Source: an uncultured virus (IMG/VR IMGVR_UViG_3300035187_001477) (Duplodnaviria > Heunggongvirae > Uroviricota > Caudoviricetes > Crassvirales). From it: 64,000 bases of DNA. Shown here in pieces: positions 1,543-47,500 of this stretch (position 1 is its first letter; every line of letters begins with the position of its first letter). The stretch is from IMG/VR virus record IMGVR_UViG_3300035187_001477; one strand, 5' to 3'. Position numbers and translations under genes: made by a program. The notes beneath the pieces are model-generated. The model was not told the origin of the DNA and searched no databases. It saw nothing but the letters and a program-made list of their open reading frames with translations.

Positions 1543-1563
1543 TAGATTAGATTTAATTTGTTA

Positions 1564-1571: not shown

Positions 1572-1590
1572 TACAAAAATTGCGAAAGTT

Positions 1591-22814: not shown

Positions 22815-23150
22815 CTAAACTTTAGAAACTCTTTTACCCATTCCAACCCTGCTCTTCTCAGCTTTTTTTGCAGCAAGTTTGGAAGGTGATATTTCACTCT
22901 TTGTTTTCGGTGTCTTTGAAGACACTCGCTTGGTTGGTCGGCAGTATTCATTACCACCTCCTGCACCACAGGCTTTGCCTGTTCGGGTATCCACCCACTT
23001 CTCGCTTTGCCATCTTTTCAAGCTCGTACCTGTCTCTGTCCTTCGGACAGTTCCGGATGCCTTCCTGCATTTTGCAATAGCTTGTGAAGCTCTTGCAGAT
23101 GGAAAGACATCATACGATGCTTTGACTTTTCTATAACAAGCGTCTTTCAT
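22815..23150 (-). CDS. Basic conserved phage protein
   Basis: SLKRWQSEKWVD...CG...YCRPTKRVSSKTPKT pattern; very K/R-rich. Confidence 0.65.
   Translation of the reverse strand: MKDACYRKVKASYDVFPSARASQAIAKCRKASGTVRRTETGTSLKRWQSEKWVDTRTGKACGAGGGNEYCRPTKRVSSKTPKTKSEISPSKLAAKKAEKSRVGMGKRVSKV
22910..22925 (-). repeat. 16-bp palindrome, copy 2 of 8 (coding)
   Basis: GTGTCTTTGAAGACAC on +. Confidence 0.95.
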
Positions 23151-27950: not shown

Positions 27951-27966
27951 GTGTCTTCAAAGACAC
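27951..27966 (+). repeat. 16-bp palindrome, copy 3 of 8 (intergenic)
   Basis: GTGTCTTCAAAGACAC. Confidence 0.95.
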
Positions 27967-28121
27967 TAAAAAGAATTAAGAGAAGACGAGAGGAGCGAGG
28001 CTACCTCCCCTCCCCTGTCTGAATGTGCAAACAATTGACAGGGATTGAACACAGGTTAAACATCTGAAAAACAGAACGTGGAAAACGTGTGAAAAATAAT
28101 TTTGAAAAAAAGTAAATAAAA

Positions 28122-28152
28122 TTTGGAATGAACGAGAATTGAACTATATTTG
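28122..28152 (+). promoter_or_regulatory. Consensus Bacteroidota primary-sigma promoter (early)
   Basis: TTTG-N19-TATATTTG. Confidence 0.8.
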
Positions 28153-28171
28153 ATAAAATTTTATACACACT

Positions 28172-28759
28172 ATGAGCAATCTACTACGAATCGAGGCTGA
28201 CTTTCTCCGCAGGTCGGAGGTCGCTTCAGCCCTGCGCTTGCAGGAGGTGCGCACGATACAGCGCACCATCACCAACGCAAAGAAGAAAAAATTTGAGCAA
28301 TCTCTCGCCCTGTCTCAGCACGTAAGCGCAGCGTTCACGTGGTTCAAGTCTGACGAGGGTCAGGCAAAGTTCAGGGAGGAGGGCATCTCGTGGACGGCTG
28401 AAGACTTTGGGCTCAAGGTCTTCGGATGGCAAAAGTCATTTTTTTACAAGATGGTCAAGGTCGCTGCTGTACCTGCTGAGGTAGTCGAGCGCTACAGCGC
28501 ACAGGCTGACGAGAGTGGCGAAGATGCTCAGCGCTCAGTCGAGGAGCTCCTCAGTTTTGCAAGGGCTGCGGAAAGTGGCACAGATGGCGGTGGAGAAGAT
28601 GCTCAGCCACGTGCTGAGGTAGTGCTCAGCCTGTCGTTCAATCATCCTGACGGAAAGGTCACCCTGAAAATTGATGATGCAGGGCAGGTGAAAATCAAAG
28701 GGGCTGAGAGTCTCGAGCAGGTGCGCAACGTATTAAACCAATTTCTAAACCAATTCTAA
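28172..28759 (+). CDS. First early gene; possible HTH DNA-binding protein
   Basis: AEDFGLKVFGWQKSFFYKMVKVAAVPAEVV resembles HTH segments of ParB/KorB- or DUF3102-like proteins. Confidence 0.5.
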   Translation: MSNLLRIEADFLRRSEVASALRLQEVRTIQRTITNAKKKKFEQSLALSQHVSAAFTWFKSDEGQAKFREEGISWTAEDFGLKVFGWQKSFFYKMVKVAAVPAEVVERYSAQADESGEDAQRSVEELLSFARAAESGTDGGGEDAQPRAEVVLSLSFNHPDGKVTLKIDDAGQVKIKGAESLEQVRNVLNQFLNQF

Positions 28760-28771
28760 ACCATACACACT

Positions 28772-29653
28772 ATGCAAACAGGTATCATCTACAGAAACAC
28801 AGGAGAGCGTTCACGTGGTCAGATAGCGCACTATCACGGAAAGCCATCACCCCTGCATCACGGCAAGACTCCGCACAGGGCTGACATCGCAGGGCTCAAG
28901 AAAGCCGAACAGCGCAACGTGCTGCATTTTGACGGCAGCGAGTACAGCAGCAGGTTCACCATCGGCTTCGAGATTGAGAAAAACAGCCTACACAGGGCAG
29001 CGGTGAAAGAGTATCCGCTCCTGTGCGGTTTCGAGCGTGACGGCTCGTGCGGTTACGAGGCGGTGACCCACATTTTGCCCCTCCTCCCTGCAGGTCAGTG
29101 GCGCAACAAGGTCTTCGACCTGTTCGTACAGGCTGAGAAGATTATTGATGACAGGTACAGCCCCTCAGACAAAAAATGTGGCGGTCACATCACAGTGGCT
29201 GTGCAAGGGCTGACAGGTGACGAGCTCAGGGAGAAAATCCGCAAGAACTGCGGTATCATCCTCGCCCTGTTCCGTAAGCGGCTCGATAACAGCTACTGCA
29301 ATCACAACAGGAGGCTGCAGGGTAACAATGAGAGCAGCCACGCAGGTGGGTGGCATCACAAGTATCAGACAGCCCTCGTAAAGGGCAACACGCTTGAGTT
29401 TCGCCTCCCCTCACGTGTCGAGAGTGTCAAGCAAATGATTCGCAGGTACGAGCTGTTTTACGAGGTGGTGAACTTTTCAATCAACAGCCCGAGCGGTAGC
29501 CACGATGCACTGCTCAAGCGCATCGACCCCATCATCCTGTCAATGTACAACGGAGACAGGGCTAAGGCTGACGAGGTGCTGCGCCTATCAAAGCATTTCC
29601 GCAAGTACATCATCACAGGGGAGAGACATCAGGACATCATCCCCTTTGTCTGA
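28772..29653 (+). CDS. Putative amidoligase (COOH-NH2 ligase, Amidoligase_2-like)
   Basis: IGFEIE, DGS...E, CGGHI and TLEFR motifs. Confidence 0.8.
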   Translation: MQTGIIYRNTGERSRGQIAHYHGKPSPLHHGKTPHRADIAGLKKAEQRNVLHFDGSEYSSRFTIGFEIEKNSLHRAAVKEYPLLCGFERDGSCGYEAVTHILPLLPAGQWRNKVFDLFVQAEKIIDDRYSPSDKKCGGHITVAVQGLTGDELREKIRKNCGIILALFRKRLDNSYCNHNRRLQGNNESSHAGGWHHKYQTALVKGNTLEFRLPSRVESVKQMIRRYELFYEVVNFSINSPSGSHDALLKRIDPIILSMYNGDRAKADEVLRLSKHFRKYIITGERHQDIIPFV

Positions 29654-29666
29654 GGGGAGAGGGGCG

Positions 29667-29682
29667 GTGTCTTCAAAGACAC
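29667..29682 (+). repeat. 16-bp palindrome, copy 4 of 8 (intergenic, hairpin next to ribozyme 1)
   Basis: GTGTCTTCAAAGACAC; stem extends over 29661-29688 with GU pairs. Confidence 0.95.
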
Positions 29683-29688
29683 TGCTCC

Positions 29689-29741
29689 TGCTGTCTCAGC
29701 GTGTGTGCGCTGACTGACGAGCTCCAAAGAGCGAAACAGCA
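29689..29741 (+). ncRNA. Hammerhead ribozyme, type III; predicted cleavage after C29695 (GUC)
   Basis: TGCTG-TC / stem I TCAGCG-TGTGTG-CGCTGA / CTGACGA / stem II GCTC-CAAA-GAGC / GAAA / CAGCA; all core nucleotides and three stems present. Confidence 0.93.
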
Positions 29742-29762
29742 AACCATAAAAATCTAAACACA

Positions 29763-29996
29763 ATGACAAAGCAAACCATCCTCACCATCATCCTTGCCAT
29801 CATCCCATCTTATCTGTCGCTGTTCTGTTCAGCGCAGGGGGCAACCATCCTGCTGTGCGCAACCACAATGATCGGGATTATCATCACAGGTGCGCTCAGT
29901 GACGAGCACAAACTGACGGACAAACTTCGCTTAGCGTGGATACTGCACTTGCTTAGTGTGTGCGGTGCGGTAGCCTTTCACAATATCGCAGGTTAA
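29763..29996 (+). CDS. Small hydrophobic membrane protein flanked by two ribozymes
   Basis: 77 aa with 2-3 hydrophobic segments; early-type initiation region. Confidence 0.7.
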   Translation: MTKQTILTIILAIIPSYLSLFCSAQGATILLCATTMIGIIITGALSDEHKLTDKLRLAWILHLLSVCGAVAFHNIAG

Positions 29997-30044
29997 CTGA
30001 CGAGCTGTGAATCAGCGAAACGGGAGCTCGCTCCCGTCTTAACC
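29991..30044 (+). ncRNA. Hammerhead ribozyme, type I; predicted cleavage after C30038 (GUC)
   Basis: GGTTAA / CTGACGA / GCTG-TGAAT-CAGC / GAAA / CGGGAG-CTCG-CTCCCG / TC / TTAACC. Confidence 0.93.
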
Positions 30045-30058
30045 AAATTGTAAGCACT

Positions 30059-30604
30059 ATGCGCAAAATCACAGAGCAAATCGTGCGCTCTTTCCTGAGA
30101 GGAGAGAATCGCACCATCGGCAACAGCCGGAGCGAGAACGGGTCGCTGTTCCTGTTCGACAATCGTATCGCTGAGTACAGAGGCAGCGAGTTATGGATAA
30201 CCAACGCAGGGTGGACAAGCAATACCACAAAGGAGCGGCTCAACGCCCTTCCCGGGGTTCGCATCCATCAGCGCAGAGGCGAGTGGTATCTGAACGACAT
30301 TGCGTGGGATGGTGGATGGGTTCACGTGGGGTCGTACACAGGCAGCGTGGATGAGGAGGTGGAATTTGATATGACAAGCAGGTGGATGGACGCAGGGTAC
30401 AGCAGACCAAATTATGCGGTGTTCCATACCCATAACGAAGCGGAGCTGAGCCAAATCGAGTTCATCCTGAACGAGGCAGGGATACCAAATCGCAGACACG
30501 AGACAGACACAGATGGTCGGTGGCTGCCCAACCACTTCATCGTGGTGCTGCCTCAAGATATTGACAATTCAGTCGCATTAATCACTAAAAATCTATACCA
30601 ATGA
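30059..30604 (+). CDS. Early hypothetical protein
   Basis: 181 aa; AGWTSNTTKERLNAL motif. Confidence 0.7.
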   Translation: MRKITEQIVRSFLRGENRTIGNSRSENGSLFLFDNRIAEYRGSELWITNAGWTSNTTKERLNALPGVRIHQRRGEWYLNDIAWDGGWVHVGSYTGSVDEEVEFDMTSRWMDAGYSRPNYAVFHTHNEAELSQIEFILNEAGIPNRRHETDTDGRWLPNHFIVVLPQDIDNSVALITKNLYQ

Positions 30605-30978
30605 TTAGAATCATCCGAGAGGCACGTATTGAGCATTGCACTGAGTACTCTCTCAACTTCGACACAGACAGAAACGGAGGCTATGCCTTCGACTGCAATC
30701 ACAAAGGCGAGGTGTTTGATATATCACCCGAGGGTCAGCGCAACTATGAGCGCTGCCTGAGCGGTGAGGTCAAGACTATTCGCCCCCCATACATCAGAGA
30801 GCGCAACTACACAAAGCATACCTATGCGGTAGGTGAGTGCTACTGCGGTGCGCCTGTAGAGCTACAGCCCGACAGCGAAGGGCTGTGCTATTGTCACTGC
30901 GGACAGGGCTATAACACAGCAGGACAGAGCATACGCCCACGCTCAGAGTGGGAGGAGAGATATGAGGATGACTATTAA
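30601..30978 (+). CDS. Cys-rich (zinc-binding) early protein
   Basis: CYCG...CYCHCG. Confidence 0.65.
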   Translation: MIRIIREARIEHCTEYSLNFDTDRNGGYAFDCNHKGEVFDISPEGQRNYERCLSGEVKTIRPPYIRERNYTKHTYAVGECYCGAPVELQPDSEGLCYCHCGQGYNTAGQSIRPRSEWEERYEDDY

Positions 30979-30997
30979 TAAACCAAACCAAAGCAAT

Positions 30998-31156
30998 ATG
31001 GAGCGTGAGTTTTTATACAAAGTTTTCTATGGTAAGGTGCTCGTCAAAACTATAGTCGCCCACACAAGGTGGGAGGCAATTGAGTTAGTCTATAGCAGAC
31101 TGATTGGCGAGTATCCTCACCTCATTCGGAGTCAGTTTAAGGCAAAAAGAATTTGA
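30998..31156 (+). CDS. Small hypothetical protein (start revised to 30998)
   Basis: ATG after an A/C-rich leader. Confidence 0.55.
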   Translation: MEREFLYKVFYGKVLVKTIVAHTRWEAIELVYSRLIGEYPHLIRSQFKAKRI

Positions 31157-31182
31157 TATGTTCAGAAATTGTCGTATCTTTG
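31152..31182 (+). promoter_or_regulatory. Consensus Bacteroidota promoter
   Basis: TTTG-N19-TATCTTTG. Confidence 0.8.
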
Positions 31183-31210
31183 TCTATCTTTAGTTCATTA
31201 ATCGGGTTCT

Positions 31211-31226
31211 GTGTCTTCAAAGACAC
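31211..31226 (+). repeat. 16-bp palindrome, copy 5 of 8 (between promoter and start codon)
   Basis: GTGTCTTCAAAGACAC. Confidence 0.95.
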
Positions 31227-31246
31227 TGCCCACAAACCTAAACACT

Positions 31247-32347
31247 ATGTGCGTAATCATTATCAAGCAACAGGGTCAGCGCCTACCCAAAGAGGTCGCA
31301 AAGACATCAGGCAGGGTCAATCCTCACGGACTCGGGGTCATTTGGATGGACACGTTTGAGATAACTTATCACAAGTCGAAAGACTACAAGGTGCTCGACA
31401 CAGAGCGCCCTTTCATTGCCCACTTCAGGTACGCCACAGTGGGTGCAATCGGCATCGAGAACACGCACCCATTCCCCTGCGGTGCAAACAAAAATGAGTG
31501 GCTGATGATGAACGGCACAATCTATGGTAAGGGCAACAAGACTGAGTGTGACACGAAGGTGCTCGCTCGGGAGCTCGGCAACAAGCCACGCCACACGTGG
31601 AAGAAAGAGCTCGAGCAATACCCCTGCAGGTTCGTATCAGTCAACGTGCGTAATCGCAGCTACCAAATCTATAACAAAGAGCTGTGGGTTCAGAGGGATG
31701 GTATATGGTACAGCAAAGCCAACGTGCTCGAGGAGCATCTCGTGGCTGTCTATGGGACGCTCAAGAAGGGTCACGGCAACTACTATCATCACCTGACTGA
31801 GAGCAAGTTCATCGGCAAGGGTGTAACCAAAGACAAGTATCCGCTCATCGTAGAGGGGCTGCCATATTTAATCGAGGAGAAGGGCAAGGGCTACAATGTA
31901 GAGGTCGAGGTGTTCAAGGTTGACGATGACACGTTCAAAGACCTTGATGCGCTTGAGGGGCATCCAAATTGGTATCAGCGTAAGCAGATACCTGTCAAGC
32001 TAAAGGATGGCAAGGTTCTCACCTGTTGGGTGTACTTCAATCCGACCAAGACAAGCAAAGGTCGCAAGATGCACAAGTCGTACACAGGTCAGAGCTACCG
32101 GCAAGAGCCTGCGAAATCGTGGCAGCCTGCGTTCACATTTTGGGAGCCACAGCGCACAATTGACGAGCCGATAGTTGACGAGCTGCAGCTACCTGACGAC
32201 CAAGAGTTCACCGTAGCTGAGGAGTGCCCTGTCTGTATCAATTGTTTCAACGACCTTGAGCACGACTTCTATGGCAACTACTACTGCAAAGCCTGTGGTG
32301 AGTGGTTCAGTGAGAATGAAATCATTAAATTCGGATGCGCAAACTAA
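31247..32347 (+). CDS. Class II glutamine amidotransferase fused to gamma-glutamylcyclotransferase and a C-terminal Zn ribbon (start revised to 31247)
   Basis: N-terminal MC nucleophile, NPHGLG, HFRYATVG, HPF, NG; VYGTLKKG, LDALEGHP, CWVYF; CINC...CKAC. Confidence 0.85.
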   Translation: MCVIIIKQQGQRLPKEVAKTSGRVNPHGLGVIWMDTFEITYHKSKDYKVLDTERPFIAHFRYATVGAIGIENTHPFPCGANKNEWLMMNGTIYGKGNKTECDTKVLARELGNKPRHTWKKELEQYPCRFVSVNVRNRSYQIYNKELWVQRDGIWYSKANVLEEHLVAVYGTLKKGHGNYYHHLTESKFIGKGVTKDKYPLIVEGLPYLIEEKGKGYNVEVEVFKVDDDTFKDLDALEGHPNWYQRKQIPVKLKDGKVLTCWVYFNPTKTSKGRKMHKSYTGQSYRQEPAKSWQPAFTFWEPQRTIDEPIVDELQLPDDQEFTVAEECPVCINCFNDLEHDFYGNYYCKACGEWFSENEIIKFGCAN

Positions 32348-32352
32348 ATACT

Positions 32353-32544
32353 ATGGCACACATAATAATCCAAGAACAAGAAAACAGAATGGTGAGAATC
32401 GACATCGAAGGAGAAGAGAAAGTACTTGCGTCTATCATAGCTTCGGCTATAATGAAAGACCCACACTTCGGTATCCTCGTGCTGTCGGCACTTGCTGTAA
32501 TCGCTGAAGAGCAAACTAAATTCCCTGACATAAACCCAAATTAA
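32353..32544 (+). CDS. Hypothetical protein
   Basis: ATG in ACTATG context. Confidence 0.6.
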   Translation: MAHIIIQEQENRMVRIDIEGEEKVLASIIASAIMKDPHFGILVLSALAVIAEEQTKFPDINPN

Positions 32545-32549
32545 AAGCT

Positions 32550-32750
32550 ATGACACAGCCAATGGACGAACAAGAAAGACTGATGCTAATTCAGCATCTT
32601 ATTGACAGACTTCTTTACCTTGAGGAAGAAAAGCGAAAGGAGTTCTTATCTTATCTCGATGCACTATACTGCGTGTATCCTATACCAAGAGAAATCAAAT
32701 ATGGTAAGGACGCTTTCATCGGTGCTGATAATTGTGACGAAAATTTTTAA
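32550..32750 (+). CDS. Hypothetical protein
   Basis: 66 aa, in operon. Confidence 0.6.
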   Translation: MTQPMDEQERLMLIQHLIDRLLYLEEEKRKEFLSYLDALYCVYPIPREIKYGKDAFIGADNCDENF

Positions 32751-32753
32751 GCT

Positions 32754-33128
32754 ATGGAAAGACAATTACTTGAAGACATCTTTGTTACTGCCCTCGAAGG
32801 GGGCAGTAACTATTGGTATCACATCACCGCTGAGACCAATCAGAAAATCAGAAAGGCTGTGCCACGTAGTGAAGACCCTTACTTAGCAACAGCTATGCTC
32901 ACCGCAATTCTTGATCACGGAGTGAGCGTAGAGATACACGATGCTGAGAATCCCGACGAGGTTCTCGGGGTGCTGAGCTACGAGAGAATCAAAGAGCAGC
33001 TCGAAGACATCGACAGACACCTTGACTACAGATGGGCGCTTGAGGCGCACCAAGATGAGGTCGGAGATGCAGAGAGCGCAGACATCGTATTCCAATACCT
33101 TGTAATGGGAGACGTATGGTTCTCGTAA
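32754..33128 (+). CDS. Conserved phage protein
   Basis: DIFVTALEGGSNYW...DAESADIVFQYLVMGDVWF pattern. Confidence 0.65.
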   Translation: MERQLLEDIFVTALEGGSNYWYHITAETNQKIRKAVPRSEDPYLATAMLTAILDHGVSVEIHDAENPDEVLGVLSYERIKEQLEDIDRHLDYRWALEAHQDEVGDAESADIVFQYLVMGDVWFS

Positions 33129-33274
33129 CAGCCAAGTGGATACGCTGCATAGCGTGCAGACGTATGTTCACACAGACAATCTACAAGAGAAAGAAAAGTA
33201 AACCTGAGTGTCCACATTGTAAAAAGATTAATGATGATAGTTCAAACCATACACGAAATCCTAAATCCGTTTGA
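33116..33274 (+). CDS. 52-aa zinc-ribbon protein (not in ORF track)
   Basis: MVLVTAKWIRCIACRRMF...PECPHCKK. Confidence 0.55.
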   Translation: MVLVTAKWIRCIACRRMFTQTIYKRKKSKPECPHCKKINDDSSNHTRNPKSV

Positions 33275-33461
33275 CGTGGAGACACCGCTCGGTACGGGCA
33301 CAGCTCTGTTTCTGATAGCAGGTTCTATTCATTCCAATCCTCAGTTCATCGTACGACTTTACAATAGTGGAGCTGTACGGACTATTGACCAAACCGAAAT
33401 CACTATCTACGGTAATCCAATGGACGGGCGTGGATGGGATATTAAATCAACCAATATATGA
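33231..33461 (+). CDS. Hypothetical protein
   Basis: 76 aa; VETPLGTG motif. Confidence 0.6.
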   Translation: MMIVQTIHEILNPFDVETPLGTGTALFLIAGSIHSNPQFIVRLYNSGAVRTIDQTEITIYGNPMDGRGWDIKSTNI

Positions 33462-33601
33462 AACAGAGAATCAAACTACTCGGGGAGCTTCTTTACTTCT
33501 TCTTTATCGCAACACCGGTATTCCTGCTGACCATAACAGCAATATACGTGGGGTTCTTTTTCTACGATACCTATAACCTGATAAAAAAAATTAGGAAATA
33601 G
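33458..33601 (+). CDS. 47-aa single-pass membrane protein (not in ORF track)
   Basis: MKQRIKLLGELLYFFFIATPVFLLTITAIYVGFFFYDTYNLIKKIRK; ATGA-coupled. Confidence 0.55.
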   Translation: MKQRIKLLGELLYFFFIATPVFLLTITAIYVGFFFYDTYNLIKKIRK

Positions 33602-33645
33602 AAAAGTTTTATACTAATTTTGTACCAAATCTAATCAAATTAACA

Positions 33646-33873
33646 ATGAAAAAAGAAACATTTATCAACAGCGGTCGCATCACAGACCTCAAGACATTCC
33701 TCAATTTAAGACCCAATGAAGCCCTGCAATTTGACTGCACAGATGTTGTGCTGTACGAGGATGGGCACTACATTCAGGTACTCAAGACCGGTCACTTCTT
33801 CTATGACGGTTTTGCTGACAAGAAATTGGATAATGTAGAAGAATTTATGTGGAAAAAAATTGACATTAATTAA
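33646..33873 (+). CDS. Hypothetical protein
   Basis: Preceded by TAATTTTG (33615-33622). Confidence 0.6.
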   Translation: MKKETFINSGRITDLKTFLNLRPNEALQFDCTDVVLYEDGHYIQVLKTGHFFYDGFADKKLDNVEEFMWKKIDIN

Positions 33874-33911
33874 ACAAATTAACTTATCTTAGCAGACCTA
33901 AATCAAATCAA

Positions 33912-34214
33912 ATGAAAAGTGACATCTTCTATCAGTACGTGGAGAGAATCACAGAGCTGTTCAGAATACAAAAAGAAGAGCTGTTCTCCAAATCAAAACG
34001 CAGAGACCTTGTCGATGCGAGATACTTGCTTTACTACCTATGCTACAAACGCCCGATGAGCCTGAGCTATATCCAAAAGTATATGAGCGAGAACGGCTAC
34101 TTCATCCGGCACTCTTCAGTTATCTACGGTATCAACACCGTAATCGAAAGAGTGAAAGAGGACAGCGACTATATGCAAGTCGTTAAGGACATCGAGAAGG
34201 CTGTATTCATTTAA
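33912..34214 (+). CDS. DnaA C-terminal (domain IV)-like HTH protein
   Basis: LFSKSKRRDLVDARYLLYYL...HSSVIYGI. Confidence 0.7.
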   Translation: MKSDIFYQYVERITELFRIQKEELFSKSKRRDLVDARYLLYYLCYKRPMSLSYIQKYMSENGYFIRHSSVIYGINTVIERVKEDSDYMQVVKDIEKAVFI

Positions 34215-34235
34215 CCAACACACATACCTAAAACT

Positions 34236-34856
34236 ATGGCAAACGAAAACAAATCCGTTTACGGTACGCTGTCGTCCATAAGCGTCAAGGACAAGATCGA
34301 AAGGAAAGGCAACCTCGACTACCTGTCGTGGGCAAATGCTTGGTCAATGCTCAAGTCAAACTATCCTGATGCGCAGCGCATCGTGTACGAGAACTCAGAT
34401 GGGATGAACTACTTTACAGATGGCACGAGCTGTTGGGTAAAGGTCGGCATCGTAGTGGGAGGCATCGAGCACATCGACTACCTGCCCATTATGGACTTCA
34501 AGAACAATTCAATTCCTCTCGCAAAGCTCACGTCAACTGACGTAACCAAAGCAATTCAGCGAAGCACAGCCAAAGCAATCGCAATGCACGGACTCGGACT
34601 TTCTTTGTGGACGGGTGAAGACCTGCCTGAGATGGTGACTGAGTCTCCAAAGAAAGCTGCTGCTGAGAAATCCTCAGCTCCTGCTGTAGGCGCTGAGTTA
34701 ATCGAACTCAAGAAGGGCACAGCCAATTGGGATGCGGTGGTGAAATATGTTGAGGCGAACAAGAAGCTCGGCATCGAGGCAATTGGGAAGCAGCTCATCC
34801 GCAAGTACAAAATTTCTCCTGCACTTAAAAAAGAAATCGCTGAACTATGCAAGTAA
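34236..34856 (+). CDS. Sak/Rad52-like single-strand annealing protein (DUF1071-like)
   Basis: ERKGNLDYLSWANAW, LPIMDFKN, IQRSTAKAIAMHGLGL. Confidence 0.85.
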   Translation: MANENKSVYGTLSSISVKDKIERKGNLDYLSWANAWSMLKSNYPDAQRIVYENSDGMNYFTDGTSCWVKVGIVVGGIEHIDYLPIMDFKNNSIPLAKLTSTDVTKAIQRSTAKAIAMHGLGLSLWTGEDLPEMVTESPKKAAAEKSSAPAVGAELIELKKGTANWDAVVKYVEANKKLGIEAIGKQLIRKYKISPALKKEIAELCK

Positions 34857-35578
34857 TCAACCAACTAAGAGACGACCACGAGTACTATCGTGGCGTGGGT
34901 AAAAACTACTTATCCAACTCAGACATCGGGGCGCTACTCACCAACCCTAAAGCGTTTCGTCAAGACAGAGAAGACAACAAGAGCTTTGCCGAAGGCAGGC
35001 TCTTTCATCAGCTCCTTCTTGAGCCTGAGAAGGTGGACAAGGTGACGAGCGTTGACGTGAGCAGTCGCAACACCAAAGAGTATAAGAAATTCGTTGAAGA
35101 GAATGGGCTTGACTTTGCACTACTGACCAAGGAGGTGGAGGAAGTCCACAACCTTGTGGCTGTAATCAAATCGAACATTGCTTTCTACGATGACATCTAT
35201 GCTGATGGTAACGTGTACGAGGAGCCGGCAATCGGTACAATCAAAGGCGTGGAATGGAAGGGAAAGGCTGACATCGTAACGGCTGACTGCATCATCGACC
35301 TGAAGACTACGAGCGACATCAATAAGTTTAAGTGGAGCGCCAAGGCGTATCACTACGACTCTCAGTGCTACATCTATCAGCAGTTATTCGGTAAGCCTCT
35401 TGTCTTCTACGCAATCGACAAGGAGACAGCGCAGCTCGGAATCTTTAGACCCACTGAGAACTTCATCAGAGGTGGCGAACTCAAAGTTGATCGGGCTATC
35501 GAGGTCTATCACAAGTACTTCGGACCGAACGCAACCGAGGATATTGACAACCATTATATTGACGAAACATTAGATTAA
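34847..35578 (+). CDS. PD-(D/E)XK exonuclease (RecE/DUF3799-like)
   Basis: LSNSDI, GRLFHQLLLEP, KGKAD, IIDLKTT, YDSQCYIY. Confidence 0.85.
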   Translation: MQVINQLRDDHEYYRGVGKNYLSNSDIGALLTNPKAFRQDREDNKSFAEGRLFHQLLLEPEKVDKVTSVDVSSRNTKEYKKFVEENGLDFALLTKEVEEVHNLVAVIKSNIAFYDDIYADGNVYEEPAIGTIKGVEWKGKADIVTADCIIDLKTTSDINKFKWSAKAYHYDSQCYIYQQLFGKPLVFYAIDKETAQLGIFRPTENFIRGGELKVDRAIEVYHKYFGPNATEDIDNHYIDETLD

Positions 35579-35589
35579 ACCCTACAATT

Positions 35590-35886
35590 ATGTCTGAACA
35601 GCAACAAGAAAGAATCTTTGCCGATGGTTTTATCATCAAGCGCAGAGACAATGCACCTGAATTTGTAATCGCAAACATCAGTGTAAAAGTGGACGAGGCT
35701 ATTGCCTTTCTCCGCAAGTACGAGAAGAACGGATGGGTAAACCTAAACGCTAAGACCGGAAGGTCAGGTAATCCCTACATCGAGCTCGACACCTTCGAGC
35801 CAAAGGGTAAGGGTAGTGCTAAGCCAAAAGCAGCAGCACCTGAGCCTGCCTCTGAGCCGGAGGAAGATGGAGACCTACCCTTCTAA
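35590..35886 (+). CDS. Putative single-stranded DNA-binding protein
   Basis: Acidic EEDGDLPF C-terminus; located next to Sak and the exonuclease. Confidence 0.65.
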   Translation: MSEQQQERIFADGFIIKRRDNAPEFVIANISVKVDEAIAFLRKYEKNGWVNLNAKTGRSGNPYIELDTFEPKGKGSAKPKAAAPEPASEPEEDGDLPF

Positions 35887-35894
35887 ACCAAACT

Positions 35895-35924
35895 AAAGAG
35901 GGGGTATCAGCCCCCTCTTTTTTT
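35895..35924 (+). terminator. Intrinsic terminator
   Basis: AAAGAGGGGG-TATCAG-CCCCCTCTTT plus T-run. Confidence 0.8.
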
Positions 35925-36086
35925 CTCTAAGCTGTGTCAATTTAAGTCTCCCTCTATTCTCTATATATATCTCTATATATATATATTATTCTATAGAATA
36001 CAGGTCAAAAAAAATATTAACATAATCGACATCGGCTTCAGAGTCAGCAAGTTACACGACATTTTTTCGACACAACCTTAACATTT

Positions 36087-38492
36087 ATGACATCACAAGT
36101 AACCATATTCCAAAACATCAAAGAGACAAGCACTCCCTTTCACAGGGAGGTGGGTGTAATCCTTGAGCGTATCAAGGATGGCGCAACCAAGGAGCTCGTC
36201 AAGAAGATACGTGCAGAGAAGCGCAAGGCTGAGCGTAATGAGCTGAAGAAGCAACTGCCTGCCATCTGTTTCAGTGGTACGTTTAACAAGCGTGCAGACA
36301 CAGCCCTGATTGAACATAGCGGTCTCATCTGTCTTGACTTCGATGGGTACGACAAGCAGAAGGTATTACTCAACGACAAGGAGACCCTGAGCAAGAACAA
36401 GTATGTCTATTCTGTGTTCATTTCTCCGTCCGGCAATGGGCTGAAGGTACTCGTTAAGATACCTGCCGATGCAGAGAACCATCAGAATTACTTTAATAGC
36501 TTAGAAAAGTACTTTAATTCCCCTTATTTCGACAAGACGAGTAAGAACATCAGCCGAGTGTGTTACGAGTCCTATGACCCTCTAATCCACGTAAACGAGA
36601 ACTCATCGGTATGGGATACCATCGAAGAGCCTGAGTACACGGAGGTGAACAAGCTACGGGACACGGCAACCATCCCGATCACGGACGAGAATAAGATAGT
36701 GGAGATACTCGTCAAGTGGTGGCAGAAGAAGTACCCGATGACCGAGGGACAGCGTAATCAGAACTGCTACGTCCTTGCGATGGCGTTCAATGACTTCGGT
36801 ATCAACAAGAGTCTTGCCGGATACGTACTAAACCAATACTCAACGGCTGACTTCCCACTCAAAGAGATTCAACGAACGATAGATTCGGCTTATCAGAATA
36901 CAGCCAACTTCGGGACCAAGTACTACGAGGATGAGGAGAGAGTAAACCAAATCAAAGCAAAGCTAAGGCGTGGTGTCTCAAAAAAAGAGGTGCGCCTCCA
37001 ACTGCAGGACTCCAATTTGGATGGCGACACGATCGAAGCGGTGCTTGCAAAGGTCGAGGAGGAGAACGCCAAGCAGACCTTTTGGACAAAGAACGACAAG
37101 GGGGTCATTAAGATAGTACATATTCTCTTTAAGCAATTCCTCGAGGACTCAGGCTTCTACAAGTACTGCCCCGAGGGTGGGAAGAACTACGTGTTCGTGA
37201 AGGTGACCAATAACCTAATCGACCACACATCAGAGAAGGAGATAAAAGACTTTATACTTAACCACTTGCTTGAGCTTGACGACATAATGGTGTATAACTA
37301 TTTCGCTGATAACACACGCTTCTTTAAGGAAGAGTTCTTGTCAATGCTATCTACTATTGACATCTACTTTATTGAGGATACCAAGGAGGCAGCGTATTTA
37401 TACTACAAGAACTGTGCAGTGAAGATAACAAGCGAAGGCATCACATCAATTGACTACCTTGACTTAGGCGGTTACGTTTGGAAAGACCACGTCATTGATC
37501 GGAACTTCAGTATGTGTAAGGTCACATCAAGGTGTGACTACCGGCAGTTCATCCGCAACATCTGCGGTAATGATGACAGCAGGGTGTCATCAATGGAGAG
37601 TACAATTGGATTCCTGCTGCACGGATACAAGAACCTCAGCTTCTGCCCTGCGGTCATCCTGAATGATGAGGTCATCAGCGACAACCCCGAGGGTGGAACA
37701 GGGAAGGGATTATTTATGAACGCCCTCAGCAATATGAAGAAGGTGGTAACGATAGATGGTAAGAGCTTCACCTTTGAGCGGAGCTTCGCCTATCAATTGG
37801 TGTCTGCCGACACACAGATACTCGTGTTCGATGACGTGAAGAAACACTTTGACTTCGAGCGTCTGTTCAGTGTGGTAACAGAAGGACTAACGCTTGAGAA
37901 GAAGAACAAGGATGCGATTAAGATTCCGTTCAGTAAGTCACCAAAGATTGCCATCACTACCAACTACGCCATCAAGGGTAGCGGTAATTCATTTGCTCGT
38001 AGGAAGTGGGAGCTTGAGCTGCACCAATACTACTCCAAGGCGTACACGCCACTCGATGAGTTTGGTAAGCTGATGTTCGGGGATTGGAACGATGATGATT
38101 GGTGTGAGTTTGACAACTATATGATCGGGTGCTTGAAGAGCTATCTTGATACAGGACTTGTGAAGAGTAAGTTCGTCAACCTTAAGATTCGTCAGCTATC
38201 AGCAGAGACAGCACACGACTTCATCGAATGGTGCGGTCTTGTCGATGGGCAGCAGCGTAACACTGCGCTTGAGGTAGGTGTAAGACTATACAAGAATGAC
38301 CTGTACCACGACTTCATTAACGAGTATCCTGACTACGGACCGAAGGCTAAGATGACCATCAGCAGAACCAAGTTCTATAAGTGGCTCGTGTCTTATGCTT
38401 TGTACAAGGAAGGTGTTACTCCGGAGGAAGGTCGTGACCTGAATGGCAGATGGATTATCATCAACAGAAAAAAGGAGGGAACAAATGAATGA
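36087..38492 (+). CDS. Primase-helicase (VirE-N/BT4734-like primase, PriCT, P-loop helicase)
   Basis: KKQLP...HSGLICLDFD, FISPSGNGLK, EGQRN, GGTGKG, VFDD. Confidence 0.85.
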   Translation: MTSQVTIFQNIKETSTPFHREVGVILERIKDGATKELVKKIRAEKRKAERNELKKQLPAICFSGTFNKRADTALIEHSGLICLDFDGYDKQKVLLNDKETLSKNKYVYSVFISPSGNGLKVLVKIPADAENHQNYFNSLEKYFNSPYFDKTSKNISRVCYESYDPLIHVNENSSVWDTIEEPEYTEVNKLRDTATIPITDENKIVEILVKWWQKKYPMTEGQRNQNCYVLAMAFNDFGINKSLAGYVLNQYSTADFPLKEIQRTIDSAYQNTANFGTKYYEDEERVNQIKAKLRRGVSKKEVRLQLQDSNLDGDTIEAVLAKVEEENAKQTFWTKNDKGVIKIVHILFKQFLEDSGFYKYCPEGGKNYVFVKVTNNLIDHTSEKEIKDFILNHLLELDDIMVYNYFADNTRFFKEEFLSMLSTIDIYFIEDTKEAAYLYYKNCAVKITSEGITSIDYLDLGGYVWKDHVIDRNFSMCKVTSRCDYRQFIRNICGNDDSRVSSMESTIGFLLHGYKNLSFCPAVILNDEVISDNPEGGTGKGLFMNALSNMKKVVTIDGKSFTFERSFAYQLVSADTQILVFDDVKKHFDFERLFSVVTEGLTLEKKNKDAIKIPFSKSPKIAITTNYAIKGSGNSFARRKWELELHQYYSKAYTPLDEFGKLMFGDWNDDDWCEFDNYMIGCLKSYLDTGLVKSKFVNLKIRQLSAETAHDFIEWCGLVDGQQRNTALEVGVRLYKNDLYHDFINEYPDYGPKAKMTISRTKFYKWLVSYALYKEGVTPEEGRDLNGRWIIINRKKEGTNE

Positions 38493-39969
38493 GATAGTTG
38501 AGCGCACGCCCGGAGCTTCTGACTACAATATGTTCAAGTACTGCGAAATACTTTGTAAGGTGATGAGTCAGACTAAGGAAGTGAAGATTGGAAGAGGGAA
38601 GACTATCGAAGTTCATCAAACGTACAAGTATAAAGACGCTCCGCAAATATTGCCACGGCTTGAGCGCAGCCGTGATTATTACAAGGAGCTTCACGAAAAA
38701 GGAGGTAGCCAAGTGCAATTCAGACAATACCAAAAAGACATCATCGCTTCAGGATTCACCATACTGCAGGAGCACCGCTTCTTATACCTTGCTATGGAGG
38801 TGAGAACAGGCAAGACATTAACGAGTCTCGGCATTGCCAATGAGATGAGAGTTAAACACGTGCTGTTCGTCACCAAGAAGAAAGCAATGGGTAGTATCGA
38901 GGAAGACTATGCAATGTTCAACCCATCATTTAAGATGACGGTCATCAACTACGAGAGCTTGCATCACGTAATGGATGACGAGATGTGGGACTTGATTATC
39001 CTTGATGAGGCGCACAGCTTAGGAGCATTTGCTAAACCAAGCGAGAGAGCAATAATGGTAAGAGACTTGATCGAAAAGTGTAGACCAATGGTGATACTGC
39101 TGAGCGGTACGCCAACACCGGAGAGTTACTCTCAGATGTATCATCAGGTCTATGGCATACCGAACAATCCGTTCAGGCATTACAAAAACTTTTACCGGTT
39201 TGCTGATGAGCATATCAAGATTAAGCAAAAGAAAATCAACGGGCTCTTTGTTAAAGACTACAGCCACGGGAAGGACAGCATTATCGAGGCAATGAAACCA
39301 TACACCATCAACTACTCTCAGGAGGAGGCAGGCTTTGTTACGCAGGTAACCGAGGAGATACTTGAGGTGGAGCTAAAGGATAGCACCAAGACTTTGATCA
39401 AGAAACTGCAGAAGGATAAGGTGATTGAGGGTAAGAGCGAGGTAATACTTGCAGACACACCCGTGAAATTAATGATGAAGATACACCAACTTTGCAGTGG
39501 AACGATTAAGTTTGAGAGTGGCAACAGTATGGTGCTCGATACTACCAAAGCTGAATACATCAAGGATTACTTTGCCGGCTGCAAGATTGGAATCTTCTAC
39601 AAGTTTAAGGAAGAATTGTCTGCGCTAAAGCAAGTGTTCAAGGATGACTTGACAACTGAGCTCAGTGTCTTTGAAGACACTGATAAGAACATCGCACTAC
39701 AGATTGTTAGTGGACGTGAGGGAATCAGCTTGAAAAAGGCTGACTACTTAGTGTACTACAACATTGACTTTAGTGCGACAAGCTATTGGCAAAGCAAAGA
39801 CAGGATGACAACCAAGGAGCGTGCGTTCAACCACGTGTATTGGATATTTAGTAAGGATGGAATCGAGCACGACATTTACAAAGCTGTAACCAAGAAGAAG
39901 GACTATACCGTAAATCATTTTAGGAAAGACTTTTATGACGGAGCAACAGGTACAATCGAAGCTGATTAA
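38485..39969 (+). CDS. SNF2-like SF2 helicase
   Basis: MEVRTGKT, NYESL, ILDEAH, LSGTP, GREGISL, QSKDR. Confidence 0.85.
   Translation: MNEIVERTPGASDYNMFKYCEILCKVMSQTKEVKIGRGKTIEVHQTYKYKDAPQILPRLERSRDYYKELHEKGGSQVQFRQYQKDIIASGFTILQEHRFLYLAMEVRTGKTLTSLGIANEMRVKHVLFVTKKKAMGSIEEDYAMFNPSFKMTVINYESLHHVMDDEMWDLIILDEAHSLGAFAKPSERAIMVRDLIEKCRPMVILLSGTPTPESYSQMYHQVYGIPNNPFRHYKNFYRFADEHIKIKQKKINGLFVKDYSHGKDSIIEAMKPYTINYSQEEAGFVTQVTEEILEVELKDSTKTLIKKLQKDKVIEGKSEVILADTPVKLMMKIHQLCSGTIKFESGNSMVLDTTKAEYIKDYFAGCKIGIFYKFKEELSALKQVFKDDLTTELSVFEDTDKNIALQIVSGREGISLKKADYLVYYNIDFSATSYWQSKDRMTTKERAFNHVYWIFSKDGIEHDIYKAVTKKKDYTVNHFRKDFYDGATGTIEAD
39665..39680 (-). repeat. 16-bp palindrome, copy 6 of 8 (inside helicase; extends to 22 bp)
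   Basis: TCA-GTGTCTTTGAAGACAC-TGA. Confidence 0.95.
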
Positions 39970-40189
39970 AGAGCTTGAAGACAAGGGATACTACGTGATC
40001 AAGTTGGTGAAGACCAACAAGAATGGCATCCCTGACCTTATTGCTATCCCTAAAAATTCTGACGTGGAGTTCTTCGAGGTGAAGCGTGCAGATGGTAAAG
40101 TATCTAAACTACAAGAGTATCGAATTAAAGAACTAAAAAAATATGGAATTAAAGCAACAGTTTATTACGGTCCCAAGAAACCTGAGTGA
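39935..40189 (+). CDS. VRR-NUC nuclease
   Basis: EQQVQ...GIPDL...FFEVK...SKLQ. Confidence 0.85.
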   Translation: MTEQQVQSKLIKELEDKGYYVIKLVKTNKNGIPDLIAIPKNSDVEFFEVKRADGKVSKLQEYRIKELKKYGIKATVYYGPKKPE

Positions 40190-40679
40190 GCAAGACCACG
40201 CACAACGGGTGGTTGAGATGGTGATGGGAGTGAGAGTTGGCGACAAGAACCGGAAGCGGCAGGTCGTGGAGGCGAGGATGATGTTCTCGTCTATGCTTAG
40301 AGATATGGGGTATTCTCTGAAGGAGATTGGTTCGGTGTTGAAGAAAGACCACACCACAATTATACACTACCTACGAAAGCTCAGAGAACTAACTGAAGTG
40401 GATAGGTCTCTGTTCAAAAAGTATATAAAGTGTAGAGAGTTGTTGATGTTAAATGAAGAGCCCGTAAATTTAGAAGAAGAATTGGAACGCTTACGCAAAC
40501 AGGTTGAGCTACTGAAGATGGAGAACTATATTCTTTCTGAAGAGAAGACTGAGTTGACAAAGCAATTGTCGAGCGATGAGAAGCGCCTACAAAAAATTTT
40601 CAAACTAATTGAAGAAAACACACAGCACGGATATGAGGGAATTGTTGAACGCAAAATAAGAAAGATGTTCGATGAATGA
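40143..40679 (+). CDS. Second DnaA C-terminal-like HTH protein with coiled coil
   Basis: RKRQVVEARMM...SLKEIGSVLKKDHTTIIH. Confidence 0.7.
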   Translation: MELKQQFITVPRNLSEQDHAQRVVEMVMGVRVGDKNRKRQVVEARMMFSSMLRDMGYSLKEIGSVLKKDHTTIIHYLRKLRELTEVDRSLFKKYIKCRELLMLNEEPVNLEEELERLRKQVELLKMENYILSEEKTELTKQLSSDEKRLQKIFKLIEENTQHGYEGIVERKIRKMFDE

Positions 40680-40857
40680 GCAGGAAAACAATCGTGCCCA
40701 ACGCATAGCGTATATGACTGAGGGCTTTCACGAAATCGTGACTTCCATCTACGAGAAATTGGTGGACAGGGAATACGACTCCGCTACTCAAGACATTAAA
40801 GAACTAATGCGTGACCTTCGTGCGACATTAAAACTTATAGAAGATGAAGACTTTTGA
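40672..40857 (+). CDS. Hypothetical protein
   Basis: 61 aa, coupled to neighbours. Confidence 0.6.
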   Translation: MNEQENNRAQRIAYMTEGFHEIVTSIYEKLVDREYDSATQDIKELMRDLRATLKLIEDEDF

Positions 40858-41260
40858 AACAGAACAAGACAGGAAAAGAGAGCAGAAAGCCATCGAGACA
40901 TTCGTCAAGATGTTCGGTGGCTCATTTCAAAAGCTCGGTCAACAAGATGTTGACTACAGAATATTTGACAAAGACAAGAACCTGATAGCTTATGCTGAGG
41001 TGAAGGGTAGGATACGACCGCTGAGGGATGCCTACCCTTTGCCGGTGGCACTTGCCAAGCTGAATAAACTGATCGAGAAAAGACACAACCCTGTATTGAT
41101 ATGGGCTTGCGAGGATGGCATCATCTATGGCAAAGTATTCTCCCTTGTAGGCGAAGTAAAGTTAGGCGGTCGCCCTCCACGTGAGGAAGCCGTTAATGAC
41201 ATCGAGATGATGGTCTACTTTGAAAGACAGAAAGGTCTTAAGTACGTAAGGTTTAGTTAA
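40844..41260 (+). CDS. Putative PD-(D/E)XK nuclease-fold protein
   Basis: VDY...AEVKGR. Confidence 0.6.
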   Translation: MKTFETEQDRKREQKAIETFVKMFGGSFQKLGQQDVDYRIFDKDKNLIAYAEVKGRIRPLRDAYPLPVALAKLNKLIEKRHNPVLIWACEDGIIYGKVFSLVGEVKLGGRPPREEAVNDIEMMVYFERQKGLKYVRFS

Positions 41261-44500: not shown

Positions 44501-47500
44501 ATCATCAACAAGCTTACCATCATAAGAATTGAATCGCTCAGCAAGCTCAGCAGCAAGTGACACATCTGCATCTACTGCATTAAGAATGTCATTAACATCT
44601 TTGGTGACAGCATTAATCTCTTCAAGTTGCAACACAGCCCTACGCTCACCCATCATTGTGACAAGCTTTGTGTATTTTTCAAACACAGCGTCAGGGATTA
44701 GGGTTGGCTTGATGGCAAGAAGGCGTTGCATCAGTGGGCTCAAGCTCTCTGCTATACCTATCTTAGTCTGTGCGTTTCTGCGTGCAGTTGGTAAAGCTTT
44801 GTTGATGGTACCAATCTGATCGGCATAGTTGGCGTTCTTAAACACCTTAGCCATATAGTCTACGAACCTACCTATTGAGTTGGGGTCAAACATATTGACA
44901 CCACTAAACTTGCTAATGATAGCTGCCGTTTGCTTGGCTGTAATGAATCCCTTGTCTGTCATAGTACGCAAATACTTAACAAGCTCTCCGCTTGTGCGCA
45001 CCCATAGCTTAATAGCATCCTTGGCTCCCTTTGCTTGGTCAGCAAGCTGCTTTTTCAACAGCTCGTACTCTGACATTGTAATCTCATTCACGTCTTTAGT
45101 CTCGCCAAAAAGTTTCTGAGGCTTAGGAGCTGCCTTCTCACGCTTACCAAATCGTTTGCGTATATCACGCACCATCTTCTCACGCTGCGTATCTGAGGCT
45201 GTCTCATATACTCGTGAGCCTTGCAGGTAAGCAATGGCGTTTTGCATTGCTTCCTCATTTGTATTGCCACGCTGCAGAGATTTTCTTACCACACCCTCAA
45301 GCTCGGTCATCATCCTGTTGAATCCGGGTAGCTCCATCTCCGTAGTATCCTCCGGTTGCGCTTGCGCATCACGTTGTTGAGCAAGGGCGCTGATGGAATC
45401 AATTACATCTTGCTCGCTCACATTGTTCTGTGCGGCAGCTCTTGTGATAGCTTCTTGCAGTGTGATACCTGTAGCGACAAGAGCCTTCACTGTTTTGATA
45501 ATGGCTTTCATAACCGGTATAGCTATGTTGATACCGGCAGTTTCTCTACCAAACTTGGTAAGGTCACCATCTACCTTATCCAAAAATTCTTTTACTCTTT
45601 CAAGAGTAGTAGCATCTTTAGTGTCTGCTGTCATCAGCTCCTCCGTTGTTGGAGCAGCACGTTCTATATCACCTGTATCTGTCTCGTTAATCTCGTAGAA
45701 CTCTGCAGGTAGAAGACCAATCTTCTGATCAGCGAACTTAAACTTCTCATATATCTGCTCCTCAATCTTACGAGCCTGTGAGTTAAGTCCTTCTTCACGA
45801 AGGGCACGTGCTTGCTGACGCAGTTCTTTAAGCGCCTCATTCTCTCCTGAGAAGTTAACGTATGAGTTCTGACCACGTGTCTCTGTGGTCATAGCCGCAC
45901 GTGCAAGTGGTGAGTACATACGTGCGTGTACGTTCCAAGCGTTCTCCTCGCCTTTAGGACCAAATGAATTGCCGAGCTCAGCGTGTCCAAAGAAATCGTG
46001 GATGGCACGGAACACGTCATTCACGAGCATAGTCTGCCCGTTCACATCTTTGAATCCTGAATCTCTTAGTAATGGGTTCTCTGCACGCTGCTCTTCTGTA
46101 ATGGCAGCATCACCAAATCCTGACTCGGTAGAAAAGATTTTCATACGCTGATTGTTTCTCAGGTCGTCAATCATCTCCTGAGAATTGGCGTATGGTTCTT
46201 CGTTATTTATCTCAACAACATAACCGGCATCGAGGAAATCTTGATACTGATCAAGGGTTTCCTTAGCCATCGCTTCGTATGCAGCTCTGACTTGGGGGTC
46301 AGTTGGGTTGTGCTGCATAGCAGCAAACGCATTAGCTATGCGTCTTGCTCTTGCTTCGTCTAACCTTTGCGATCCGTTGTACCTCGGTCTTTTCTTGCCG
46401 AAAACTCTTTGATAATATCTATCCGCAATTTGCGCAACTCTCTCGAGGGGCTTATTGAAAAGTCTGTTGCCGGGGCTTGGCTTGAAATACTCTCCGCTAT
46501 CAACGCCTTGGAACTCGGCATCCCTCCTGACTGCTTCTTCGACTGCTTGAAGAATGTTTTGCCCACTCGGTCCAAGTTCGGACCCTTTAGCTTTAATTCT
46601 TCCAAGAATTTTTTTCCTGCTTGCAACGCCAACTCTTCGGGAATCGACCGGACGGAAGTCTTGTTGTTCATAATTTATTCCTTTTGATTTAAGTAGTTCT
46701 ACAAATGTACCAATGTTTTTCTGTAACTGTGGGTCAGCAAAGTCTAATACGTCAATGAATGATACCTCACCTGTCTTCTCGTTGATACTAAAGTCAGTGA
46801 TACCTGCTTCCTTTAACGCATCTATTGCACCATCTACATCAGATACTTTAACGCTATACTCATTGGCGTTGTGCGTCTTACCACCCTGTTCGGTATACTG
46901 TGCAGCAATGGCTGCCTCCTGCACCTGTGGAGCAAATGCACTTACGAGTGCAGCATATTCTTCAGCCTGCTCGATGGTAGCACCCTCAAGGTCTACAGCG
47001 TTTGATATTTCTACAATCCTTTCACCTTTATTATTCTCATACCCACCAATAAACTCAAGGACGTTGGTCTTGATACCAAGTAAACTGCCAATATCTGCAA
47101 GTGTTTGCAGGTATCCCTTATACGCAGGAGACTCTCTTAATGCTGCAGCTTCTGAGGTAGACCCAACTTGTGTGTTAAAGAATGGAGCTACATTTACCCG
47201 TGTCTTTGAAGACACTTTTTGAAGAGCATCTAATTCGTTAAGAGCTTCATCCACTGCTATGGTTTGATCTCCAATAGTGATGGTCTCTTGATCATCTTCT
47301 ACAGCAGCGAGCGCTTTGATTAGCGCATCTTTCCTTTCTTGTTGTTCGGGGCTGAGGACTTTTTCACCCTCTTGGGTAATGACTTCAAGTCCTGTTTTGG
47401 GTTCTCCTTGCGCCAACGCTTCGCTATCTCCGGGTGTTGGCTGAACAGATACTTGACCTGCTGCTTGCTTTTGAATGGCATCTTGTGATATTTTAGTTAG

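Follow-up and report, generated by a model that had tools for sequence, protein, structure and literature searches.

Two hammerhead ribozymes flank a small gene in an operon of an uncultured tailed phage and probably process its polycistronic mRNA

The window, by which we mean the whole 64,000-nucleotide stretch of DNA analysed here, comes, by its gene content, from a tailed phage with crAss-like features. Alongside the large terminase and portal genes it encodes very large virion proteins and GroEL/GroES-like genes, and its crAss-like marks are a crAss001_48-related protein, a crAss muzzle C-terminal domain and a BT4734-like primase domain. Window positions 1 to about 400 recur at 63129 to about 63530 (127 identical bases, then shorter identical runs with mismatches between them), so that the window would span a whole genome of about 63.1 kb and wrap onto its own start; the recurrence could alternatively be a terminal repeat, with copies that are not fully identical. 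A distant blastn search of 28000-32000 against the GenBank phage collection returned a single weak record, with 14% covered.

The ribozymes described here, HH1 and HH2, lie within a rightward block of genes (Table 1), and we compared this region with related loci from other viral contigs. A search with the 293-aa gene upstream of HH1 gave 28 loci, one of them identical to the window, and a search with the 181-aa gene downstream of HH2 gave the identical contig again and one further relative, L002. Excluding the two copies of the window-identical contig, the set of related loci has 28 members (L002 and L004 to L030). The first gene of the unit, orf195, belongs to no family that we could find, and 21 of the 28 related loci have a homolog of it on the 5' side of the 293-aa gene. 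The 293-aa ORF matched nothing in Pfam or PHROG, and the one lead on its nature, from a protein atlas in which Amidoligase_2 is assigned to 12% of the members of one cluster, is that it is possibly amidoligase-like.

Between the two ribozymes lies orf77, whose product is hydrophobic (GRAVY 1.07) with two or three likely membrane helices predicted. It has no Pfam or PHROG family, its best protein atlas scores are 0.87 and thus below the useful range (<0.9), and a homolog is recognisable in one related locus (L002, 35% identity). A true metatranscriptome run contains one 254-nt contig of a close relative, corresponding to window positions 29711-29964 and lying wholly between both cut sites, and 9 of the 10 listed differences between this contig and the window fall on third codon positions of orf77. 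This bias suggests that orf77 is a real, conserved coding gene, and is silent on the RNA ends.

The unit is likely to begin at a promoter-like TATATTTG, which we place at the head of the transcription unit holding both ribozymes. It is of the TAnnTTTG type, which we take to be the Bacteroidota-type promoter consensus, and in the extended form GAATTRAAC-TATATTTG it is found before the homolog of orf195 in 9 of 14 loci. The next motif of this type on the plus strand after 28145 is at 31175, and none occurs between 28145 and HH2; in the window as a whole, the count of TAnnTTTG-type motifs shows no excess over expectation. The stretch from 31175 to 31248 (plus strand) holds a second promoter-like TATCTTTG, followed by a conserved TTCATTAATCGGGTTCT stretch, the 16-nt hairpin GTGTCTTCAAAGACAC, a 22-nt leader and a gene, seemingly of the same operon, for a class II glutamine amidotransferase-like N-terminus fused to a gamma-glutamyl cyclotransferase domain (GATase-GGACT; 31249-32347, plus strand). 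This layout is kept in the related locus L007 and is less exact in L002, and the fusion protein probably starts at the ATG at about 31249 (Met-Cys) and not at the GTG at 31211, which is internal to the hairpin.

Table 1. Coordinates of the genes, ribozyme parts and repeated elements in the window
Feature	Position	Strand	Remarks
Portal gene	1591-4026	-	
Large terminase gene	4023-6260	-	
Promoter-like TATATTTG	28145-28152	+	19 nt before start codon 28172
Rightward block	28172-41260	+	Sak-type annealing protein, exonuclease, primase-helicase, SNF2 helicase, small unknown genes
orf195 (195 aa)	28172-28759	+	first gene of the unit
293-aa ORF	28772-29653	+	conserved anchor gene, directly upstream of HH1
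12-bp hairpin	29661-29688	+	core GTGTCTTCAAAGACAC at 29667-29682; adjoins 5' side of HH1
HH1, type III hammerhead	29689-29741	+	predicted cut 29695/29696
HH1 stem III	29689-29694 with 29736-29741	+	
HH1 C17	29695	+	end of GUC triplet
HH1 stem I hairpin	29696-29713	+	
HH1 core CUGACGA	29714-29720	+	
HH1 stem II hairpin	29721-29732	+	
HH1 GAAA	29733-29736	+	
orf77 (77 aa)	29763-29996	+	TAA stop 29994-29996, within 5' strand of HH2 stem I
HH2, type I hammerhead	29991-30044	+	GGUUAA/UUAACC stem-I subfamily; predicted cut 30038/30039
HH2 stem I	29991-29996 with 30039-30044	+	
HH2 core	29997-30003	+	
HH2 stem II	30004-30016	+	
HH2 GAAA	30017-30020	+	
HH2 stem III hairpin	30020-30037	+	
HH2 C17	30038	+	
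181-aa ORF	30059-30604	+	Kyano_Gp96-like; PF23790, 40 bits (cut-off 27); phrog_554
GTGTCTTCAAAGACAC, exact copies	27951-27966, 29667-29682, 31211-31226	+	16-nt near-palindrome
GTGTCTTCAAAGACAC, exact copies	6048-6063, 22910-22925, 39665-39680, 47200-47215, 62078-62093	-	16-nt near-palindrome

HH1 has the organisation of a type III hammerhead (RF00008), with the catalytic core C3-U4-G5-A6-N7-G8-A9 and G12-A13-A14, an A15.1-U16.1 pair, an NUH triplet, loop-closed stems I and II and an open stem III (7, 4 and 6 bp for stems I, II and III), and HH2 that of a type I hammerhead (RF00163), with a full core, an open stem I and closed stems II and III (6, 4 and 7 bp). A base-for-base reading of 29500-30250 confirms what the original prediction had said of them, namely that there are two ribozymes with these topologies and cut sites and that the TAA with which orf77 ends falls within HH2 stem I; the distances derived from the cut sites, a 343-nt piece between them and 67 and 20 nt from the cuts to the next start codons, are likewise correct. 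When each motif is folded alone (HH1 over 29689-29741), the minimum-energy structure is the hammerhead. In the minimum-energy fold of 29654-29742, which includes the upstream hairpin, stem III of HH1 is absent, and the full HH1 does not form in a 441-nt fold, so folding in the cell may be partial or may depend on the order of transcription. Fast hammerhead cleavage at cellular Mg2+ requires loop-loop contacts.

Motifs of this completeness are not expected by chance in sequences of this composition. CTGANGA-hairpin-GAAA cores occur three times on both strands of the 64 kb, and the two that belong to HH1 and HH2 are alone in having all three stems, so the window contains no other complete hammerhead. 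The remaining core, near 25288 on the minus strand, lacks both stem I and stem III, and we rejected it as a hammerhead. Applied to 188,475 bases of the window and its relatives, a strict three-stem scanner returned 37 matches on the gene strand and 0 on the opposite strand, and it returned 0 in each of 20 dinucleotide shuffles.

The Rfam hammerhead models, proposed earlier as a check, give a divided answer: HH1 is matched by RF00008 (44.4 bits against a gathering score of 48.5, E = 2.2 × 10-8 in a search of 751 nt), and HH2 by RF00163 at 17.8 bits against a gathering score of 34 (E = 0.032 in a search of 86 nt; unreported in the 751-nt search), so that both motifs fall below the gathering scores, and at gathering score no Rfam family matched anywhere in the window. 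A gathering score is a threshold for annotation and not a property of the RNA, and it is reached by only 1 of 29 strong model matches from 10 related loci; these thresholds thus miss nearly all elements of this kind, which are invisible to standard annotation. A type I covariance model built from 10 relatives, with the window left out, finds HH2 as its sole match in the 64 kb (60 bits, E = 4.2 × 10-12).

Covariance models applied to 210,851 bases gave strong matches to type III (33) and to type I (14), all on the gene strand. At least one ribozyme is present in 19 of the 28 related loci (four of the 19 are near-duplicates of one another), and in the other 9 neither model found one within the stretch fetched, which implies that the function can be dispensed with or taken over by something else. 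Ribozymes number 2-5 in each of five complete related genomes (60.6-62.8 kb), all of them inside 1.1-3.8 kb of the same operon. Among 21 type III sequences, 92.7% of the cells are paired and both sides have changed in 13 of 17 pairs [covariation score 0.681, against 0.208 for shuffled alignments, with 0 of 500 reaching the observed value, and at most 0.124 for slid partners]. Among 10 type I sequences, 100% are paired and both sides have changed in 7 of 21 pairs [covariation score 0.351, against 0.126 shuffled]. The sequences were picked beforehand by the stem-demanding scanner, which inflates the percentages paired and leaves the shuffle, strand and model results unaffected.

The type I subfamily of HH2 extends well beyond these loci, and an exact-pattern scan of viral contigs for the GGUUAA stem I together with the core found it in at least 131 stretches, on contigs of many sizes, with up to 5 copies in 1.7 kb on one contig among the matches listed. 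Stem II covaries freely in this subfamily, and loop II mostly has five bases with U at its start and end. A type I variant in L002 (1592-1649; 46.7 bits with the model) carries one additional U after A9, before stem II, and its cleavage triplet is CUC and not the usual GUC.

The placement of the ribozymes relative to genes is regular. In the relatives they occupy the gaps between ORFs, on the gene strand, with 12-22 nt separating the end of the ribozyme from the start codon that follows. Among the matches listed for other phage contigs, the next start codon follows the ribozyme by 12-21 nt in 94 of 134 unique type I contexts, and in 82 of the 134 the upstream stop codon is contained in the ribozyme's first 10 nt, while in 25 more it lies no more than 6 nt before the ribozyme. 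The leaders after type I ribozymes are A-rich, without a Shine-Dalgarno-like sequence. A type III ribozyme stands directly after the 293-aa homolog in 15 of the 28 loci, at protein identities of 42-68% for the 293-aa gene, and a second ribozyme follows within about 450 nt in 6 of these 15.

The second ribozyme differs in topology from locus to locus. In L004, L006 and L007 the second ribozyme, behind the small ORF, is of type III, at the site that type I occupies in the window, and in L014, L015 and L002 it is of type I; before the gp96-like gene, L002 has type III and the window type I. The two topologies are thus interchangeable at equivalent sites. The enclosed genes vary as well, since the close pairs surround one to three ORFs that differ in kind, and a hydrophobic first small ORF is seen in 7 of 14 loci. 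In the window the pair is 302 nt apart and encloses one ORF, whereas in L002 the orf77 homolog shares its ribozyme-bounded segment with another gene, after which a type III ribozyme follows. Altogether HH1 and HH2 fit the pattern of clustered phage hammerheads, which lie close together on one strand and flank genes of no constant identity. The original prediction had singled out the sandwich of two topologies around a hydrophobic ORF as unusual, but relatives with III/III and III/I pairs around variable ORFs make that of the window one variant and not a conserved design, and mixed clusters are also described in PMC3088659, as far as its relevant passages go. It had also proposed to test whether related phages keep both ribozymes while the enclosed ORF varies; the ORFs do vary, and the close pair is kept in the 6 loci just mentioned.

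Which genes stand between the 293-aa gene and the gp96-like or GATase-GGACT genes varies greatly. One related locus, L016, has neither the small ORFs nor a hammerhead in the 5.8 kb fetched, and from 88 to 4656 it carries the 16-nt hairpin (or a variant with one base changed in the loop), a leader of about 20 nt and an ATG before nearly every small gene. It looks like a hairpin-only version of the same intergenic layout.

Every type III ribozyme that we examined (28 of 28) has a hairpin adjoining its 5' side, as HH1 has in the window. The fold energies of these hairpins are far below those of 1500 control 40-mers from the same loci [median -17.1 against -4.5 kcal/mol, Mann-Whitney P = 4 × 10-17], and cleavage at type III ribozymes would consequently leave hairpin-capped 3' ends on the upstream RNA. 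Type I ribozymes have no separate hairpin, and in the relatives their long stem III has the same sequence as the hairpins adjoining type III, so both topologies would produce the same kind of 3' end. In the window, no T-run follows the hairpin at 29661-29688, and no terminator-like site was called there on the plus strand.

The core of this hairpin, the near-palindrome GTGTCTTCAAAGACAC, occurs in 8 exact copies in the window, where 0.76 would be expected even with 3 mismatches allowed, and its orientation agrees with the local direction of genes in 7 of the 8. In other phage contigs it is found in at least 163 stretches, with conserved places inside the terminase and DUF5872 genes. Among the matches listed, 22 of 155 contexts have it at the top of a T-tailed terminator-like hairpin and 8 of 155 have it directly before a type III hammerhead; at other sites it lies about 20 nt before start codons, and its outer flanks covary and lengthen the stem. 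It may be a protein-binding hairpin, and no paper in the literature searched contains the 16-nt string or two variants of it.

These observations are best explained, and we consider this reading probable, by host-independent ribozyme processing of a polycistronic mRNA, which the original prediction had named as the simpler alternative and which is the one that the comparative data support. Hammerhead cleavage leaves 5'-OH and 2',3'-cyclic phosphate ends. HH1 and HH2 would cut the mRNA of the rightward (replication and auxiliary) operon during or soon after its synthesis, without a host RNase. Transcription would start near 28145-28160 and read through orf195, the 293-aa gene, the hairpin, HH1, orf77, HH2 and the 181-aa gene. 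Cleavage by HH1 after 29695 would release an upstream two-gene RNA ending in the 12-bp hairpin and a 7-nt tail with a 2',3'-cyclic phosphate, and a downstream RNA whose 5'-OH is followed by the folded HH1 body and lies 67 nt from the start codon of orf77. Cleavage by HH2 after 30038 would leave its folded body as the 3' end of the orf77 RNA, with stem III as the terminal hairpin, and the RNA of the 181-aa gene would begin with a 5'-OH and an unstructured, A-rich leader of 20 nt up to the start codon. The outcome would be mRNAs of one or a few genes with structure-capped ends, whose stability and translation are uncoupled from those of their neighbours. Contigs from four RNA-labelled runs among 24 listed, two of the four probably DNA, contain no joints and no pile-ups of ends, and one contig, probably also DNA, bridges the HH1 cut site; being contigs, and in part probably DNA, these data have no bearing on cleavage or circles.

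Other readings of the locus can be weighed against the same data. The overlap of stop codons with type I ribozymes, seen in the contexts listed above and in most type I ribozymes of the relatives, would fit a scheme in which a ribosome terminating at the orf77 stop codon blocks the folding of HH2, so that the cut is made mainly when orf77 is untranslated. Such gating would make what happens to the downstream mRNA depend on translation upstream of it, and would refine the processing model without replacing it. We think it unlikely, as two of the three reading frames necessarily meet a stop codon in the conserved TAGGTTAACTGA, with the consequence that the overlap may reflect only the tight packing of genes, and as type III ribozymes at equivalent places have no overlap with a stop codon. 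It is also conceivable, though decidedly improbable, that the ribozymes ride with accessory gene cassettes to little benefit of the phage, or insulate inserted genes. The variable gene content after the 293-aa gene, the ribozyme-less L016 and the wide spread and local multiplicity of the invariant-stem-I type I subfamily would agree with this, but in 15 of the 28 loci the first ribozyme has stayed behind the 293-aa gene with its stems fully compensated, and a fixed place and compensated stems across that degree of protein divergence argue for purifying selection on an active fold.

N4-type virion RNA polymerases use hairpin promoters, and the 16-nt core lies about 20 nt before the start codons of many genes in ribozyme-less relatives; together with the crAss-like features of the phage and a weak match of a window ORF to the N4 RNA-polymerase helical domain (19.9 bits against a cut-off of 27), this brings up the idea that the hairpin or its surroundings are a promoter and that HH1 strips a short triphosphate leader from the 5' end, the polycistron not being cut at all. 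This is scarcely credible, given that the ribozyme-adjoining hairpins come directly after stop codons and lack the AT-rich TTAATC-like stretch of the other sites, that the core is also found inside ORFs and in the T-tailed terminator-like hairpins counted above, and that type I ribozymes have no separate hairpin. There remains the circularising mRNA of the original prediction, in which the piece 29696-30038 would be ligated into a stable circular message for the 77-aa membrane protein, either by an RtcB-type ligase of the host or by the reverse reaction of HH2 on the partly complementary new 5' end. The chemistry of hammerhead cleavage, as is well established, gives the right ends, and in animal retrozymes hammerhead-bounded circular RNAs are reported to be made with RtcB (PMC7229834, in the part considered here). 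We find no support for a circle in the comparative data, since only 6 of the 15 loci with the first ribozyme retain the close pair, the enclosed ORFs vary in number and kind, and the length of the piece differs among phages (311, 314, 343 and 409 nt); nor were circular or spliced products of tandem phage hammerheads detected in the experiments that the consulted parts of PMC3088659 describe. No RtcB or RNA ligase family was found among the window ORFs scanned, and the unit is present as a single copy with two unlike ribozymes and no repeat of it in the window. The claim that neither ribozyme is rebuilt at the junction of the circle holds for HH1, which would keep only two invariant stem III pairs, and only roughly for HH2, in which the new 5' end could pair at 8 of the 10 positions of stem I; the same pairing is 2 of 10 in L014 and L015, and the match in the window is therefore probably due to chance. 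We regard the circle as very improbable, but if it existed, it would be a natural, exonuclease-proof, protein-coding circular RNA of 343 nt from a DNA phage.

Processing of the polycistron by its own ribozymes has parallels in known systems. In phage T7, cuts by RNase III between the early genes leave each upstream message with a 3'-terminal hairpin. The arrangement described here would resemble this in giving separate messages with protected hairpin 3' ends, and would differ from it in that the RNA is predicted to cut itself, with 5'-OH and 2',3'-cyclic phosphate ends, whereas in T7 a host enzyme leaves 5'-phosphate and 3'-OH. RiboJ, a synthetic ribozyme insulator, is an engineered part in which, as here, a self-cleaving ribozyme before a leader gives a defined 5' end independent of the upstream sequence; the elements of the phage are natural, and their purpose is one that we infer. 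Viroids, satellite RNAs and retrozymes (PMC7229834, in the part considered here) share with the window a unit bounded by hammerhead cuts with ligatable ends, but the window has one DNA-encoded copy in an operon, with two unlike topologies, no repeats and no rolling-circle template, in an arrangement that is not conserved.

The closest likeness is to the arrays of Perreault et al. (2011; PMC3088659), in which, according to the passages drawn on here, clustered hammerheads of mixed type flank single genes in prophages, and in vitro transcripts of about 2 kb from three arrays were cleaved at all sites. Those authors proposed that long phage transcripts are processed into single-gene mRNAs and had already raised circular or spliced products as an alternative; Weinberg (2019; PMC6765202), in the portion consulted, repeats the processing model as still unproven and the purpose as undefined. 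What phage hammerheads are for has been a question since 2011, and the present phage group offers a clean comparative set for the processing model, with a conserved site after the 293-aa gene, interchangeable topologies, relatives with and without ribozymes and a conserved 3'-end hairpin, from which specific predictions on RNA ends and half-lives follow. Like the arrays of PMC3088659, so far as the passages used here describe them, HH1 and HH2 are of mixed types, lie on one strand of a phage genome and flank single genes or short blocks of varying identity, and they are in this sense one more example of a kind known in phages since 2011. Unlike those arrays, as described in the same passages, they belong to a different host group, the window being from an uncultured crAss-like lake phage with a Bacteroidota-like look to its promoter and leaders, and no paper in the literature searched brings hammerheads and crAss-like phages together. 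Nor do those passages mention a sequence-conserved hairpin such as regularly stands beside each type III ribozyme here. What is new here is the picture across a whole family of related loci and the hairpin partner found at every type III ribozyme examined.
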